NCBI RefSeq assembly: GCF_001447785.1
Contig: NW_015176457.1
Coordinates: forward strand, 544,252 to 608,251
Source: Gekko japonicus
Lineage: Eukaryota
Length of the DNA: 64,000 nt
Direction: 5' to 3'
A program made the translations under genes and the position numbers. Positions within the stretch are counted from its first letter, which is position 1. Every line of letters starts with the position of its first letter. Positions 4,538 to 35,848 of the stretch are shown piece by piece. The notes below the pieces were generated by a model. The model was not told where the DNA came from. It did no database searches and saw only the letters and a list, made by a program, of their open reading frames with translations.

Positions 4538-5734
4538 CATATTCATTATTTTGAAGAACAGTAAGGTCCTCTGTGTGAGATCCCCAAGTAAAATGGTTGC
4601 TAGCTTCCTCCTTGAAATAGAATTACTCATTATAACCCATTTGAAGAATAACCGTCTACTATATCATGACTCCACTCTGCTCTAGGATTCGGCTGAAATA
4701 CTATAGTTTTACCATAGAATTTCTACTGAATCCTAGGCGTGTCATGACACCAACTCTGGGTTTGACCCAGAAATGACATCACACCGCTGATATGCAATGC
4801 TGATTTTTGCATTGTTTCCCCCCTATCAGGCTAGCAAGTGGCAGTGGGGGTTGGGAGCTGCTCTAGTTGGCACAGGGACATACTCTGTAAAAAATTTTTT
4901 TTTTCTATTATAGCTTAGCAACACCAGACTGTTGGTCATATTTAATGTATGACTTACTGTCATACACTTACACTGGAGTAAACCTGCATAGGGTGGCTTT
5001 GTTAGATGTGTATTTCAGTATTATTTTGAAGGTATATAGTTCAAATGGTATCCATGCTTACCATTGTTAGAAAAAATGAAACTTCATAGTCAGTGTCTCC
5101 TGACAATTTATACTTTGATTGCAGATTCTTGCCTAGGGGGGTTATTAAAACCAGTATTTCACAAAGGCTTTTGCTGTTAATTTGCAGTATTGGGGGGTAA
5201 AAAGACAGCATGTAATATATATTTTTTAAAGGAACTACTCTCTGTGACTCCATTTGAGATTATGATGGAGTACTGGGCACCATACAACAAAAGTAGACAA
5301 AGTCCTCATCAGTCATGCTTGCCCTTTTCCTCTGGAGTAACCCATTGAGATCCATTCACTCCATTTGCCGTACAATACAGTGTATACATTTATTTGGGTT
5401 TCATGCAAAGTGCTACTACTTACTCTAGAGGAAGAATGGTAATGTGCCAGTTGAATCTTTGCTGATAGCAGCAAATTTACTGGGGGGGGCGGAGTTGTGC
5501 TGTTTCGTTTGGGAACAGGGAGTACTTTGGGATTGTTCTTTCTTCAATTATATTTATTTGAGTGGAGGTGTAGTAGCACTTTGAAGAAATCAAATTACAC
5601 ATTTTTTCACTTCCTGCTCTATAAATTTACTCATAAGGAGCAGTTTCAGTATACTATTTTGAGAATTGTATCCAGGAGACTCCTTTTTCTTCTCCCACAC
5701 AAATGGGGTGGGGCAGGGTGGAATTTCAATTTAT

Positions 5735-28524: not shown

Positions 28525-28780
28525 GCTGCCTTGGTATTGGCTTGGCTTCTTTGGCTTGGCTTGGCTTCTTTGGTTTGACATTGGTTCTGTTGGGTTTGCC
28601 ACATTAGCCCTGGGCTCTGCTTGGTTTCGGTGGTTTGACATTGGTTCTGTTGGGCTTGTAATAGTGTCCTTTGATTAAGTTGGTTTGATATGGATTCTCT
28701 GATTGATATTGGTTTTGTTGTGCTTACCACATGGTTCTGCTGAGATTCTCTGGTCTGACAGTGGTTCTGTTGGGCTTGTA
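28525..28780 (+). repeat. Degenerate tandem repeat (TTGGC)n / GGTTTGACATTGGTTCTGTTGGG
   Basis: The motif recurs near 28572, 28632, 28730 and 28755. Confidence 0.75.
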
Positions 28781-31340
28781 GATTATGTTTGCATTTGGAA
28801 GTTTTTGGCTACTGGTTGCTCTTGTGTTTTTGGCTATTGACTTCTTTGCCCGAGAGAAAGCATGGAATTATGTTTCCCCATAGGAAACAATGGAGACAAT
28901 TAGGACTGCTGGGAGCATCTTGTTCAGGGATCCATACAATTGGACCTACTGATCCAACTCACTTGAAATTGGGGGTCTTTACTAGACAAACAGGACTTAG
29001 GTTCCCTGCAATTTTGGTGTCATATGTTTGAAAAACAGCCAGTTTTCAGTAACGGTATCCATACCAGTATTCCAGATTGTTTGGGTCTCCAATAGCCTTT
29101 CAGAATTCAGACTTAGGTTTGGGTTTGTTTGTTCCAGAACTCCAAAATGTTTCAGGTCCATTATTCCCTAAGGAATAGGAAAGGGTGGGTGGGTGTAGTG
29201 GGCTATGCAGAAATTTGCTTCAGGCCCACTTCCTCTGTAAAATATTTATGTTGCCATCAGATATTGTGTAGCCCATAGAGATGTCCCTGCCTACTCATGT
29301 CATGAACTTGTTTCCTGATGGTGACAGAGATGTTGGCCACTGTCTGCACCTCGTCAAGTACCTTGGCAGGGAGCAAAGTCTGGCAATAGTTGGCCCAGTA
29401 GCCCTTCTCACCCTGTCTGTGATGGTTATTCCATCCTAACGCAGAAAATCCTTGGGTTGCCACCAGTGTACAGTGAGAGGTATGTGTGCTGTACCTGAGG
29501 GCAGGTCCAAATATCAGATGGGAAGTGCACAGCTCTCTCACTCATGGTTCCTGGCAGGCTTAACAGGGAGGGCACCAGTGGATGAGAGCAGGGATCATGT
29601 ATGAGGGAAAGCCTATGGAACCTAGCATGCTCAGCAACTGGAAAGAGCTGCTTGCCAAAGAGGCGAGTGACCCTCTGTCTTGCTTACTTCTGCCCAACTC
29701 TTGGTACACTAGTGCCAACCATACCAAACATCTCCGCCAAAGATGTTTGCACAAGAAGGGTCATGGAGCGACTCCCCTCTTGGCTGGCTTGCAGTGTGCT
29801 TCTTCAAATGGTTTCTGAGACTGCCTATTATGAAGCGACCCAGGTCTTCTCAACTGATTCTAGCCCTGCACAGCTAGCACTAGAGAAATGGGGATCCTCC
29901 ATCTGACCATGACTAGCAGCTACAGGCACCTCTGGGAGCTGCCCTCAATGAGGGGCTCAGGGCAGACACACCATCTCGGGGGGGGGGGCAGAAGGAAATG
30001 CCCAAGGAAGAAGGGGTTGAGGTGGTAGCAACTTGCGGTGCACATCCATCTCTTCCTCTTATGCCACCTCCAGTCTCTTCTCCCTCTCCTTGGAAGGCCT
30101 GTTGGACTCTGGAGAAATGGAGAAGCAGTGCACAGTCTCTCCTCCAGTTCCTCAAGCAGGCTCTAGGTCCCTGGAATTAATTCGGATCCTGAAGTTCTTA
30201 TCCTCCAAGTTCAGCTCCAAAGACAGCTTGGACTGGCCTTCCTACTGCTGCTGAGTCACAACAGCTGGAAGAGGGGCAGCCTCTGCAAGTGGCACTGCAG
30301 CTGCAGCTTCAATGAAGAGGGCTTTGCAAGTCCTCTTCATTACACCACCCAAGCCAGAAAGGGGGGTGGGTGATGAAAGACTGCTCTGGGACAGGCATCC
30401 ACACAATGGAAGGAAAGCTGAAATACTCCCTCTGCCCTGCTATTCTTCTGCTTAGCCTTTCCTTCAGGGCTCCGCTGCACTCTCCTTCTGTCACTCATTC
30501 TGTCCCCTGGACTACATCACTATAGTAAGATAGCTGATACATTAGGCTATGCTGCACTCTGAGTTTGAGCACTAATTACCCTGCTCTTAAATCTGATTTT
30601 CTAGCCTGCACTTTGACTACCTCTCCTCTTGAACACTAACCTGCAACTGTCTACCTTTTTTCCTAATTTTTTTCTTTAAACTACACCTAGGCTTGGTTCA
30701 ATTGAATACTTTTTTTAAAACCTGCTTCACCCTGTAAGTCCTTTCTAGCCTAAGAGCTAACTAGTTTTAACTACAACCTGTGATGCAAGTATGGAATTAT
30801 TATTATTTTTTTAAAAAAAATCAAGTTTAATTTTTGTCTCAAGCCTTATGTTTCAAAAGTTAATCTAATGCTAGTCTTTTTTTTTTTTAATCTGACTTCG
30901 TTTTTGGAAGACTAAAAGGTCAGCCTAAACTCTTGTTTGTCTAACCGATTGTTTTGAATCCCAGGACATCTTAATCATTTTTTAAGTAAATCCTGTAGCC
31001 CAGTTTATTTATTTAAAGAAAAACAACTGACAGCTTTTTGAAAGCCTAGCGAAAGCCTAATCTTTTAAAAACTGAACTGTAAGTTGAAATTGATTTTGTT
31101 TTTAAAATTCTTAAACCATCACCTACAGATTACTGTTATTAAACCCTAACCAGAACATTTCTGTAGAACCTGCTGCAACAGATTTTTTAAAAGCCAACTG
31201 GAAAACTCCAGTCTCCACAAATTGACTTCCCCCCAAAAAATACAACACAGAAAAATCTTTAAAACAACTACAGAAGAACAATTGTAAAACTAAAACTAGA
31301 AGAATGTAAAAAGAGAATTTTAAAAACTTGGTAAATCTCG

Positions 31341-32029
31341 TGTCGTGGGTCAGCCTGAGCTCCGCATGAAGTCCTCAGGGGAGGAGGACTCCTCGGGAGA
31401 AGGGGAGCCATGCATGGCTGACTCTGAGTCAGCAGAAGCCACCAAACAGGCTGATGAGCTGCAGGCTGACCAAGACTCACTACCAACAACTGATCCAGAG
31501 TCACCGCCCAGCCCCAATGCAGCAAGTGAGACTCCGTTGATTAAGACCACTCCACAAGGCTCACCTCCTCCCTTTGAGTGCCGGAGACAGAAGCTTAGAA
31601 GGGAGCTGCAAGCAAGGAGGCAGAGTGCACATCTCCTGGCCCATTGCCAGCTGCTTGCTGATGACCGCCTGGAGTAGTTGCAGCAGTACTCCCAAGCAGC
31701 TGGCTGCTAACAAGGACTTTTTAGGAAGTGGCTATAAAACCCAGGGCTGGGAGCCTGCATGTTGTGGAAGCAACTAGTTATTCTGTGAGCACAACTCCTG
31801 ACCCTGCTTTCTTTGTGTGACCTTGGACTGACTTGGGGCTTTGACTGGTTTTGTGACTCTCTAGCTTGTGAATGACCTTTGGACCTCCTGACTATATTTT
31901 CTACTTCACCTCTTCTGGTAATGACCCTCTGGCTTGTGCACTCTTGGCTTGTGGACTTCTGGGACTGAACTCTGGACTTTGTGTGAGCAGCTGAATATGT
32001 CTGGCTTGCCTGCCTGTGCCTGCTACACA
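31341..32029 (+). mobile_element. Gypsy-type solo LTR with embedded ORF (31345-31677)
   Basis: Begins TGTCGTGGG, TATAAAA near 31733, ends ...ACACA; homologous to 34301-34974. TSD not evident. Confidence 0.75.
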
Positions 32030-32163
32030 ACGTTTCCTGCCAAAGGCACAAACCCATTAAAAACCTGTTAAAAACAGAGAAAATGCAAAACATTAAAAAT
32101 TCTAAAACAAGGCAATAGAGGAGAACCTAACAGCACAAGTCTTTTAAAACCTTTTTAAAACAA

Positions 32164-32221
32164 AGCTGGTCCATGGGGTCGCGAAGAGTCGGACTCGACT
32201 GTGCGACTGAACAACAACAAC
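32164..32221 (+). mobile_element. RTE-BovB extreme 3' tail
   Basis: GCTGGTCCATGGGGTCGCGAAGAGTCGGACTCGACTGTGCGACTGAA(CAA)n; CpGs retained; AAAACAA flanks. Confidence 0.9.
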
Positions 32222-33760
32222 AAAACAATGCAAAACAAAATCAAGGAAAACTATTTTAAAAGAACTCAAAAGGGGGGGAAAGGCTCCCTTCCCCCACTAC
32301 AACCCCCAGGCAAAAACCCACCTTGAAATAATATTTTTAAATAATGTCCACTGTAGGAAAACCCAGTCCTGAAGATTTCCAGGCACAGAAGAAGAAGAAT
32401 GCTATCCCGGGCAGGCAGCAGAAATCCAAGGCAGAGACCAGAATAGCAGTGGCAAGCAGCAGCACTCCAAAAAAATCTAGTCCTGAAATGGTGCCAAGCA
32501 GCAGGTCTGTTTTCTATCCTTTTTGCCCAAGCTCAGAGAGCCATGGAGTGCTATGAGAGAATTGTTGTGATTGGGCAGACAAGTTTTAGTGAGGCCCCTA
32601 ATGTCCAGTCCAGTTGTCTGAGAGAGCTGCCTCCTTTCCTCACCCTTCCTTCCCAGTGTCCAGGAATCCTGCTAAATTGAAGAAAAGCAGGCTCCAAAGT
32701 CTTACAATGCCAGCCCTGGATATTTCCAGAATGTTTGGGGATCCAGTTACCAGTATTTGGAAAATGCAAATATCAGTCTGGACACATGGAAATATCCTAA
32801 AATACCAAGGTATTTTTCAGATATATATTCGGACTGAAATATCTGAGTGCACATCCCTACTGCTTTTCTCTTCTCCCCTTTCAGCTCAAAATACTGCTTC
32901 TAGAGAAAAATGTTAGTTTTGGAAATAGAATTTCCAGCATTTTTCTGTTTTTGTTAATCTGTCACACATTGATAAGAAGCCATACCCCAGGCTACAATTT
33001 AGGGATCGCTATGTTAGTGTGTGTGTTTATTAGAAGATTTCTTACACTTTTTGAATATTTGCCAAATCTTAGAGATTAGTTGCATTCCATGCTATTATAC
33101 TGTCACCAATGACACAAAACTGGGAGAACAGCAAGTATGTTGGTAAATGCATTGAAAATCAAAAATTAAAAAGGGTATTGATGTACTACTGCAGCAAAAT
33201 TCAGCAAGAAAATATATAAAGTGGTTCTCATAGGAAAATAAAACAAACACACAGGTCTACCTATTGCCCAGAAGGCGTTATAGCCAGAGTCACCAAACTT
33301 TCTTTCTTTTTTATTTATTTACCATTGGATTTATATCCCGCCCTCCGTGCAAGTGAGCTCAGGGCAGGTCACAACAGTTATGGTACAATATAATAATAAA
33401 TACAATTCATACAGAGTTAAAATGTCTAAAAACCAACAGATAGCAATGAGAAATTTAATGAGAAATAGTTCCATGGAATTAAAAATATTCCAAATTCCCC
33501 CACCCTGGGATATTCTCAGGTTTTGTTCTGTCTAAGAAACAGGACACCACAAATGAGGAGGAGCACCAGAAATGAAGTCATCAGCTAAACAGGGTAGAGA
33601 AAAAGCTCTTAAAGAAAAGCTTTAAAAATGCCAAAAGCAGGTTTTTTACTAATGCACAAGCTACTATACAGCTACAAGTAGCTCATAAGCTACCGGTTGG
33701 AGACCCGTATATTAGAAGTTCTAGACTGTTAAACTGAACATGAGTCTTCGGTGTGCTCTG

Positions 33761-33860
33761 CAGCTCAAGAGTCCAGTGGAATTTTAGCTCAATAGAACAG
33801 AAGTATCATGTACAAGGAGCTCAAGAGTCCAGTGGAATTTTAGCTCGATAGAACAGAAGT
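33761..33860 (+). repeat. ~43-bp direct duplication
   Basis: AGCTCAAGAGTCCAGTGGAATTTTAGCTC.ATAGAACAGAAGT occurs twice. Confidence 0.9.
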
Positions 33861-34300
33861 TTGAGAATAATACATACTGTTCTACTCAGCATCGCTTCAG
33901 CTTCCATATTCAGTTCTAGATGCTGCTATTTGACAAAGATGTTGACAAATGCAAGCAAAATCTGCAGAAAACTGCTAGGACTATTCTTTCCAGTGAGCCG
34001 ATATGAGGATCATGCCTCATCTTCCTCCCATTCTCCTACTAGTAAAATTGCTACTCACTGTGGTTAACAGTTGGAGGAGGCTGTAAAATTGTTCACATGA
34101 GGGCACATGCACTGAAGACATGCTGCATTCCCATTACTGAGTCAACTGCACTGACACGCCTTCAACCAGATCCATTCAAATGTCTTCAGCAATGTGGTAG
34201 GAGATGTACATGCTACTGGATGTCCCACTGAAACTAATGGACAGTATCTACATATGTTTTTCTACATTAAACCACAACTAGCTATACAGAACTATGCTCA

Positions 34301-34974
34301 TGTAAGCTTAATCATGGCAAAAGCCTTGGCATGCAACTCAGGTAGTGTCAGAGTCTAGGTCCAAGCCGAGTCAGAAAGTCGGAGTCAAGGTTCAGTCCAG
34401 AAGGTCAGTTACCAGAGAGCAGAGTCCAGTTCAGAGTGTGGTCCAGAAAGCAAGGTGTAGCAATCCAAGGTCATATACAAGAGCAAGCAGGTCCAATATC
34501 CAAGTCCAAAGCCAGTTCAGAGGTCACTGGAGTAGAGCAGGAGCTGTGGTCACAGAGTCCACCAGGTGGTAACATATTTGTTCCAAACCAAGCAGTCTCC
34601 CTTAACTGGCTTTTATAGGCATCTGCTGCAAGGTCTTACTTGCAGTCAATTTCTTGGGAGTAACTCTGCAGCTACTCATCATCAGCAAGCAGCTGGCATC
34701 GAACCAGATGTGCACTTTGTCTTCTCTCCTGGAGCTCCATTCTAAGCTTTTGTATACGGCGCTGTGGGTGTGGGTGAAACTGGAGGGCTGGTAACAACCA
34801 CCTGGGGTTCATCTATTGGAACGGGGCTAGAAGGTGCTGGTGGCTCTTCCTCAGCTGTCAGCTGCGAAATCTGACAAGCTTGCAGTTCATCTTCTGGCGT
34901 GCCAGCTTCTGCTGCTTCAGAGCTGGCTAACCAGGACTCCTCCTGAGGAGTTGTCTCCTGACTGGCCCACGACA
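34301..34974 (-). mobile_element. Gypsy-type solo LTR, same family as 31341
   Basis: The minus strand begins TGTCGTGGG; TG...CA ends; 5-bp TSD GCTCA / GGTCA. Confidence 0.8.
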
Positions 34975-35140
34975 GGTCAGCAGTGACAGTACTGATTGAC
35001 ATGCTGAATCAGAAGGCTTCACTCATGTTCTTCTTACCCAACTCCAATAGAGTGAGGGCAGTGTGAGGACTTAGTTTGCCTTCAGTGATATTGGCTAGAT
35101 GGTACTGCAATGTCATCCTGTTCACCGTGTGATCACACAG

Positions 35141-35848
35141 TGTCATGATTGCCCTGGCAGGGCAGGCTAGGCAAGGCACAGAGTATCCAAAAACACACGC
35201 TGAAGTCAGAGCACCAGATAGGCAGAGAAACAAAAGCATAATCCAAAATATCAGTCTAAGGTTTACCAGAGATTGGCAGTCAGAGTTGTAAAGCCGAATG
35301 TCGTTGTTCAGAGTCAGGTTACACATTCCAAGGTCAGGGAGCCAGAAGAACGATGTGACGCAGTCCAGAGACAAAAAGCCGAGGGAGTCAAGCAGAAAGT
35401 CAGGAAACAAGATCCGAGGTCCAAGGTGCAGCGATTCAGTCATTTGATCAGTTGCCAGCATGAATTGGATAGTGAAGAGAGCTGCCTTAAAAGCCAGTTC
35501 CCCTTGTCACTAATTACCGGCTGATTACAGAGTCCTGACTCCCGTCAATACTCGGGACTCAGAGGACGCTTTCCATGCATGCATGCTTCCCTACGCCGGG
35601 TTGTCAAGTCCCATCTCCTTTGGTCTTGTAAACGAGCTACAGGTGGGGGGGAATCAGGGGGCGTGGAGCTTGTGCTTGGCTCTGCAGGAGCAGCTCCAGG
35701 TGTAAAACCTTCTGGTAGCCGGTGTTCATCCTCTGCAAGACTTAGGTTTTGTACTTCCAGGGGTGCAGGGAGCTTGTTCCTGGATGTTGAAGGTGCAGAG
35801 TCCCCGGGATCAGGGTCCACTGGGTCGGGCGGCACGGCGGGCATGACA
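35141..35848 (-). mobile_element. Gypsy-type solo LTR with embedded ORF (35545-35844)
   Basis: TGTCATG...CATGACA TIRs; 5-bp TSD CACAG / CGCAG (CpG decay). Confidence 0.88.

Follow-up and report, generated by a model that had tools for sequence, protein, structure and literature searches.

A Pol C-terminal tail probably encoded in the long terminal repeats of gecko chromoviruses, with a predicted arginine-rich helix at its end

The closest systems described so far come from plants. In group A of the CRM chromoviruses, pol extends into the 3' LTR (long terminal repeat), which encodes the CR targeting motif (available part of PMC3059260), and some Tekay-clade elements of beet (Bingo) also extend pol (available part of PMC3605345). 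Here we analyze a window of 64,000 nucleotides from Gekko japonicus (assembly GCF_001447785.1, contig NW_015176457.1, positions 544,252 to 608,251 of the forward strand), in which three solo LTRs, termed copies 1 to 3, begin at positions 31341 (+ strand), 34974 (- strand) and 35848 (- strand) and contain a frame, intact or broken, of about 100 codons. Comparison with related loci makes us highly confident that this frame represents a C-terminal tail of Pol/integrase which was under selection. The elements share with CRM group A and Bingo, so far as the accessible text of the two sources describes these, the chromovirus type, the passage of pol through the polypurine tract (PPT) into the 3' LTR, and the 5-bp target-site duplication (TSD); TG...CA termini, a 5-bp TSD and a PPT are all present. 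The LTR-encoded integrase end of CRM is considered a putative targeting domain in the available parts of PMC3059260 and PMC3605345. However, CRM elements have the CR motif instead of a chromodomain, while the gecko elements retain a chromodomain upstream of the PPT and add the tail to it. The Y-W-Y aromatic cage residues, which define a Group I chromodomain (PMC3605345, same part), are kept in the loci L121 and L173 and their relatives. The gecko elements also differ in having a vertebrate host and a tail without a Pfam match. By analogy of layout they are thus CRM-like, but they are not CRM members, and the architecture is no new principle because overlap of coding sequence and U3 is known from the plant CRM elements.

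Within vertebrates, the nearest relatives are the Sushi/Tf1-like chromoviruses of fish and amphibians, which share the SH3_Tf2-1 plus chromodomain integrase end, and the gecko terminal repeats resemble the Sushi pattern as far as it is given in the available text of PMC3601003. Fish-type proteins also cross a PPT-like junction and end in SPEF or SPEY (e.g., Hoplias, SPEF). However, they continue for only about 15-25 residues past the junction, compared to about 100 in squamates, where an acidic linker precedes a long basic helix. The accessible portion of the Sushi LTR model paper (PMC3601003) contains neither 'ORF' nor 'open reading frame'. Our literature search, which did not extend to Repbase notes or subscription journals, returned no report that vertebrate chromoviruses have such a tail, although curators may know the overlap.

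A search of the genome (2.49 Gb in a fragmented assembly of 191,500 contigs) with the Pfam SH3_Tf2-1 profile gave two kinds of chromovirus. The two clades split at 100/99 in a chromodomain tree (43 rows, 59 columns), with the tail-bearing elements on the same side as the Sushi/Tf1-like vertebrate chromoviruses. LTRs linked to Pol were then found by PPT-anchored and chromodomain-anchored searches. In a young sister family, 26 of 41 equal-scoring SH3_Tf2-1 matches lie within a 1304-codon frame. Its element L246 has 710-bp LTRs with 3 mismatches, a 5-bp TSD, and gag followed by pol, and the 1304-codon frame passes through SH3, chromodomain and PPT and reaches its stop after a further 108 codons within the 3' LTR. 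The L246 tail has the phase of the window frames and the same anatomy, and terminates in RRSLSPDY-stop as compared to RPLSPEY-stop in copy 3. Three further loci (L121, L122 and L137) are stop-free through SH3, chromodomain, PPT and tail, and L121 matches Pfam PF24626 and PF00385, i.e., a Tf2-type SH3 and a chromodomain. LTRs of the copy-3 and copy-2 types likewise sit directly behind a chromodomain and PPT. The copy-3-type locus L173, which matches window copy 3 at 74%, is open from 230 codons upstream, via the chromodomain, to its SPEY-stop, and among copy-1/2-like Pol-linked LTRs 6 of 7 distinct junctions are in frame, as counted by hand from the printed junctions, which was how all junction frames were scored. 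In the second clade of the same genome, used as control, pol ends before the LTR in 30/30 scorable loci, and LTR frames of phase 1 reach 69 codons at most. The original prediction, made from the window alone, had assigned the LTRs to Gypsy elements and proposed that the frame was either a Pol/integrase extension read through the PPT or a separate accessory protein. The Gypsy identity is borne out by the Pol-linked relatives with chromodomain and PPT, and the first alternative agrees both with these copies, as the frame is continuous with pol in the young family and L173, and with the substitution pattern described below.

Several observations weigh against this architecture. None of the Pol-linked LTRs recovered by these searches belongs to the copy-1 subfamily proper, the best matches being copy-2-like. 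Among decayed copy-3-type junctions only 5/21 are in frame, which is no better than chance, and the four junctions nearest to window copy 3 are all out of frame (0/4). The PPT junction contains two G-runs of variable length, and in the young family 6 of 22 inspected copies, partly picked for short frames, have slipped. The sister clade also manages without a tail. We infer that the out-of-frame copy-3 junctions reflect homopolymer decay, and this is the chief gap in the architectural case. The G-run changes of the young family (L228-L230, L232, L235 and L244) amount to +1 in three copies, -1 in two and -2 in one, and may represent reverse transcriptase slippage, later mutation or assembly error. 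As a separate observation, L235 (contig C31406) carries a few CCCTAA telomere-like repeats directly after the LTR start, at about 5130-5160, where the frame reads PNPNPN.

The 16/21 decayed copy-3-type junctions that are out of the pol frame would be expected if the LTR encoded an accessory protein distinct from Pol and with a start of its own. An in-frame ATG within the terminal repeat of 29/30 copy-3-type LTRs points the same way, as does a peptide of this kind (P0038) called by a gene predictor in Gekko kuhli. However, this ATG belongs to the terminal repeat and is CpG-variable in the copy-1/2 families, a TATA-like box lies downstream of the stop, and the young family has one continuous frame. 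We therefore regard a separate protein, the second alternative of the original prediction, as unsupported and very improbable, although the tail may later be released from Pol by proteolysis.

In the window, the copy-1 solo LTR, of a Sushi-like chromovirus, spans 31341 to about 32031 (+ strand), its right end being decayed and the coordinate thus approximate. Its tail fossil (31342-31677, +) consists of 111 open codons followed by TAG and includes the acidic linker, a Ser/Pro segment and a basic helix; the SPxP and arginine-rich segment, predicted to be helical, covers 31561-31674 (+, approximate start). A TATA-like box lies 3' of the tail stop at 31733-31739 (+), and because of this position the frame is placed in the presumed U3, the boundary of which is inferred. 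The copy-2 solo LTR, an LTR-type element, occupies 34346-34974 on the - strand, with a TATA-like box at 34611-34617 (-) and a tail fossil at 34672-34973 (-) in which comparison of sequence and phase indicates two frameshifts, at ~34940 and ~34762. The copy-3 solo LTR lies at 35141-35848 (-), with a 5-bp TSD agreeing at 4/5 positions, and its tail fossil (35545-35847, -) has 100 open codons and an LSPEY-stop end, which resembles the young intact family (LSPDY) and the fish relatives (SPEF/SPEY). The three elements had been predicted correctly, and each belongs to a high-copy family. A frame of about 100 codons from the LTR edge was also claimed for all three. This is right for copies 1 and 3, which are open from LTR base 2, but not for window copy 2, which has no continuous frame: the start is in phase 1, the first aligned block in phase 2 and the second in phase 0. 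Other copy-2-type LTRs (e.g., L038, L049 and L056) are open end to end. Equally open frames arose in 2.8% (copy 1) and 1.2% (copy 3) of 500 dinucleotide shuffles.

First-look searches of the genome gave 1272, 1129 and 490 candidates for copies 1, 2 and 3, and for each family 40 candidates were scored and 30 fetched. A 5-bp TSD with at most one mismatch was found at 27/30 copy-3-type, 13/29 copy-2-type and 7/28 copy-1-type loci, where the right end could not be placed in 11 copy-2 and 19 copy-1 loci. A shared-flank test on the 90 loci detected no common internal sequence but overlooked the Pol-linked L034 (the same place as L199); hence not all 90 loci are solo. An 18-nt in-frame duplication of an SSGEED unit segregates in the 5' part of copy-1-type LTRs, where it is present in 7 of 24 aligned copies (L004, L010, L016, L018, L023, L025 and L027).

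Selection was assessed by the ratio of nonsynonymous to synonymous divergence (dN/dS) from pairwise comparison of real copies, taking between-family minus within-family divergence and bootstrapping over codons. The duplicates L020, L029 and L045 were dropped beforehand together with L063, as were 4 copy-1 and 5 copy-2 loci that had Ns or whose starts were unclear, leaving 24/28 and 24/29 loci for copy 1 versus copy 2. In this comparison the tail frame has a net dN/dS of 0.24 (confidence interval (CI) 0.13-0.42) and its basic third about 0.10, the strongest constraint, while the other forward frames give 1.0 and 2.4 and the downstream region 0.8-1.2. The within-family value of 0.67 serves as the neutral baseline of the estimator. 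Copy 3 differs from an older copy-3-type group (29+11 copies) with a net dN/dS of 0.20, falling to 0.08 in the last 35 codons, and from L192-type copies (29+4) with 0.31; for the young family versus L191-type copies (5+3) the values are 0.48 and, in the last 35 codons, 0.12. Across all comparisons the other forward frames lie at 0.9-2.4. Insertions and deletions common to at least 3 copies are triplets in 6/6 cases inside the frame and in 0/5 downstream; private ones are multiples of three in 10/47. From the frame-specific low dN/dS and the shared triplet indels it follows, on sequence comparison, that the parent elements were selected for the peptide, chiefly for its last 35 residues, and that the solo copies decay neutrally. 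This agrees with the original prediction, which had read a coding-type divergence from two aligned blocks of copies 1 and 2 and had correctly counted 5 and 7 synonymous differences in them. It had also listed C-terminal indels of 6 and 3 nt: the former is family-wide (24/24), but the latter is absent from both other copies of the copy-2 type in the alignment.

Some values do not fit this picture so well. The reverse frame gives 0.37 for copy 1 versus copy 2, which is expected because it shares third positions with the tail frame, and one downstream control frame is also low (0.40, CI 0.18-0.85). The linker is constrained in one comparison (0.32), whereas constraint is weak or absent in two others (0.86 and 1.22). 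The open frame might instead result incidentally from GC content and from the promoter motifs of U3, with no protein constraint at all: a CAGCTG box overlaps the codons of CQL, there is only 1 synonymous change in the final 7 aligned codons, the shuffle probabilities of single copies are modest (0-0.06), and the 12 representatives in the shuffle test were chosen among open copies. The high net dS and low dN in three comparisons (0.63/0.064, 0.87/0.070 and 0.58/0.070), the specificity to one frame and the triplet phase of shared indels largely refute such an origin, to which we give almost no credence.

The order of an acidic, a Ser/Pro-rich and a basic segment, noticed initially in the window copies, holds more widely, as 16/16 tails combine an acidic linker with a basic helix. 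Net charge of the linker is -6 to -21, and the helix contains 4-12 Arg and 0-1 Lys. Across families the pattern is SPxP followed by spaced arginines, L-x-x-R-R-x-x-A-R-x-x-x-R-R, and spaced Leu/Ala/Met positions and SP[ED][YF] ends are also kept. AlphaFold2, run on an 11-row alignment, places a helix at residues 150-176 with a core predicted local distance difference test score (pLDDT) of 83-91, and a disordered linker. This points to a predicted arginine helix as the conserved unit, although the same model leaves the chromodomain unfolded (mean pLDDT 51.7), which counts against the structural prediction. A Pfam scan of the window tails gave no family, and the ESM Atlas gave no usable match for the young-family tail. 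A supposed resemblance of the R...LSPEY end to the CENP-C motif had 0 matches in a literature search and was dropped.

An arginine-rich C-terminal segment on an integrase might serve mainly as a nuclear import or retention signal of the integration complex. The Ty1 integrase has such a C-terminal nuclear localization signal (NLS), which is among the references cited in the available part of PMC3605345. However, the tail helices contain 0-1 Lys each, while classical NLSs are usually lysine-based, and the conserved Leu/Ala/Met spacing with the SPxP and SP[ED][YF] ends exceeds what an NLS needs. We thus consider a mainly nuclear import role unlikely. Arginine-rich helices are also frequent nucleic-acid binders, and the helix might bind the RNA or cDNA of the element itself, or linker and helix, which occur together in 16/16 tails, might regulate integrase intramolecularly, with no part in target choice. 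However, the tail follows the chromodomain and lies within the 3' LTR, which is the position of the targeting domain in plant CRM, and we find these two roles, taken together, distinctly unlikely.

The original prediction went further and compared RRQSAHL, encoded at 31615-31635 (+) in copy 1, to the RRSARL core of HMGN proteins, since reversal of CpG decay would restore RRRSARL. This holds for the His codon, which is CpG-polymorphic in both directions (CGT/TGT/CAT in 10/7/5 of 24 and 6/5/10 of 24 copies), but not for the Gln codon, which is CAG in 22/24 and CAA in 23/24 with no TGG or TGA, i.e., without a pattern of CpG decay. Gln is thus family-wide, occupying the position of HMGN R23 in 45/48 copy-1/2 copies as well as in 2/5 sister-family rows. 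Literal RRSAR was found in 2/28 copy-1-type and 0/29 copy-2-type copies, and RQSAR in 7/28 and 2/29. Ser is present in most copy-1/2 copies but is replaced by Glu in 28/30 copy-3 copies, and by Glu, Asn or Val in sister families. The HMGN core is stated to be invariant in the accessible part of PMC5622319; in the tails, neither both leading arginines of RRSAR nor an invariant Ser is present.

In a strict HMGN-type mimic, a special case of a chromatin tether, the short RRSARL-like motif would insert an anchoring arginine into the acidic patch of H2A-H2B, in the manner of HMGN, Dsup and Dot5. Arg is indeed kept at the anchor, i-4 and i-5 across families (alignment A4, columns 30, 31 and 35), although in old copies the codon of this anchor is a CpG-polymorphic site. 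The anchor and i-4 arginines (columns 31 and 35) stand in the register of Dsup R363/R367, and HMGN2 uses R23 and R26 (available part of PMC12487698). According to modelling in the same source, HMGN2 S24 would repel the acidic patch once phosphorylated, and Dot5 requires R6, R7 and R10 (available part of PMC13347269), both of which speak against the mimic. The tail shares with HMGN, Dsup and Dot5 the Arg-Arg-x-x-Ala-Arg spacing and a disordered context, but it differs in the Gln at the second Arg of copies 1 and 2, the unconserved Ser and the predicted helix, and its constraint spans about 35 codons and not a 6-mer. Judged from these alignments, the tail is no member of the HMGN motif, because of the Gln and the Ser that is not conserved across families, but it retains a Dsup-like spacing. 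The proposed mimicry is hence weakened, and we consider it doubtful. Past a PPT-like junction, two distant chromodomain proteins from ENA terminate in RRSARLAA (P0130) and RRSARIAA (P0177) (2/113). By their sequence they are better HMGN-like candidates than the window copies, and their literal RRSARL/RRSARI ends keep the acidic-patch idea alive.

Among named homologues of the tail in other hosts, the closest belong to squamates, and read-through acidic tails occur in proteins of Rhineura, Vipera, Podarcis and Salvator. The Rhineura tail (PPSPAECRQQKVRQK) has weak similarity to copy 1 (pairwise E=0.001). In Gekko kuhli the tail was found alone, as a piece 81% identical to the young-family tail, and this is the gene-predictor call P0038. 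When the copy-3 tail alone was used as query, 0/551 candidates were longer proteins carrying it. The simplest reading, which the tree does not resolve, is that a short ancestral overlap may have been lengthened in squamates.

In the proposed mechanism, pol passes the chromodomain and PPT, as shown for the sister families, and terminates about 100-110 codons within the 3' LTR. The 3' U3 serves as template for both LTRs, and recombination between LTRs leaves solo fossils. As the 3' U3 is copied to both LTRs in each cycle, selection on Pol would shape the entire LTR, and since pol ends inside the 3' LTR, solo LTRs carry a fossil of the tail. These solo copies would not express the frame from their own promoter, because its TATA-like box is located 3' of the stop, and would decay neutrally. 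In the protein, an acidic disordered linker of 55-86 residues would keep the basic helix away from integrase, and the helix would contact the H2A-H2B surface and/or the DNA of the nucleosome, with the chromodomain reading methyl-lysine. We consider the chances of the tail helix being a chromatin tether, or second chromatin-binding arm, as evenly balanced. A Pol tail fossil whose arginine-rich end acts as such a second arm is the best overall explanation, and a moderately probable one. A more specific form is that the squamate chromovirus integrase is a bivalent nucleosome reader, with a chromodomain and an arginine helix docked on the acidic patch, which is tentative and rather unlikely. The short basic chromatin-tethering segments of prototype foamy virus Gag, KSHV LANA and cytomegalovirus IE1 are a possible analogy (available part of PMC9040877). 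These have solved structures as hairpin or V-shaped peptides (LANA, IE1) and are located on Gag or nuclear antigens, whereas the gecko segment is on integrase. The term 'retrotranspos' is absent from the accessible text of that review of viral acidic-patch tethers.

The three tail-type LTRs of the window lie within 4.5 kb (31341-35848), and at a few other loci (L037/L074 on contig C9489, L148 and L153) such LTRs are adjoining or nested. Three more are present in 210 kb of flanking DNA, two of which are one reciprocal pair, compared to 0 in 392 kb of control DNA from 40 hand-placed stretches (p=0.04, uncorrected, in a weak test). A regional insertion preference is possible, with clustering that is statistically weak. 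Elsewhere in the window, positions 32168-32226 resemble a retroposon 3' end, putatively of the BovB/Sauria type, with a (CAA)n tail, and positions 28540-28790 contain three 57-nt repeats, spaced by 60/120 nt, similar to T-rich repeats in the 3' half of another LTR.

To our knowledge, integration-site choice by vertebrate chromoviruses has been little studied. The elements described here have a short, strongly constrained LTR-encoded integrase module in one clade that is absent from its sister clade in the same genome, and the tail-bearing and tail-less clades thus provide a natural comparison for insertion-site preference. If the bivalent reader were true, HMGN, Dsup, LANA and foamy-virus Gag would have a counterpart on a retrotransposon integrase, and the plant CR motif would have a parallel in vertebrates. 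Collectively, our results indicate that thousands of 'non-coding' solo LTRs in squamates preserve the fossil of a protein, and that gene predictors already annotate this fossil as a gene.

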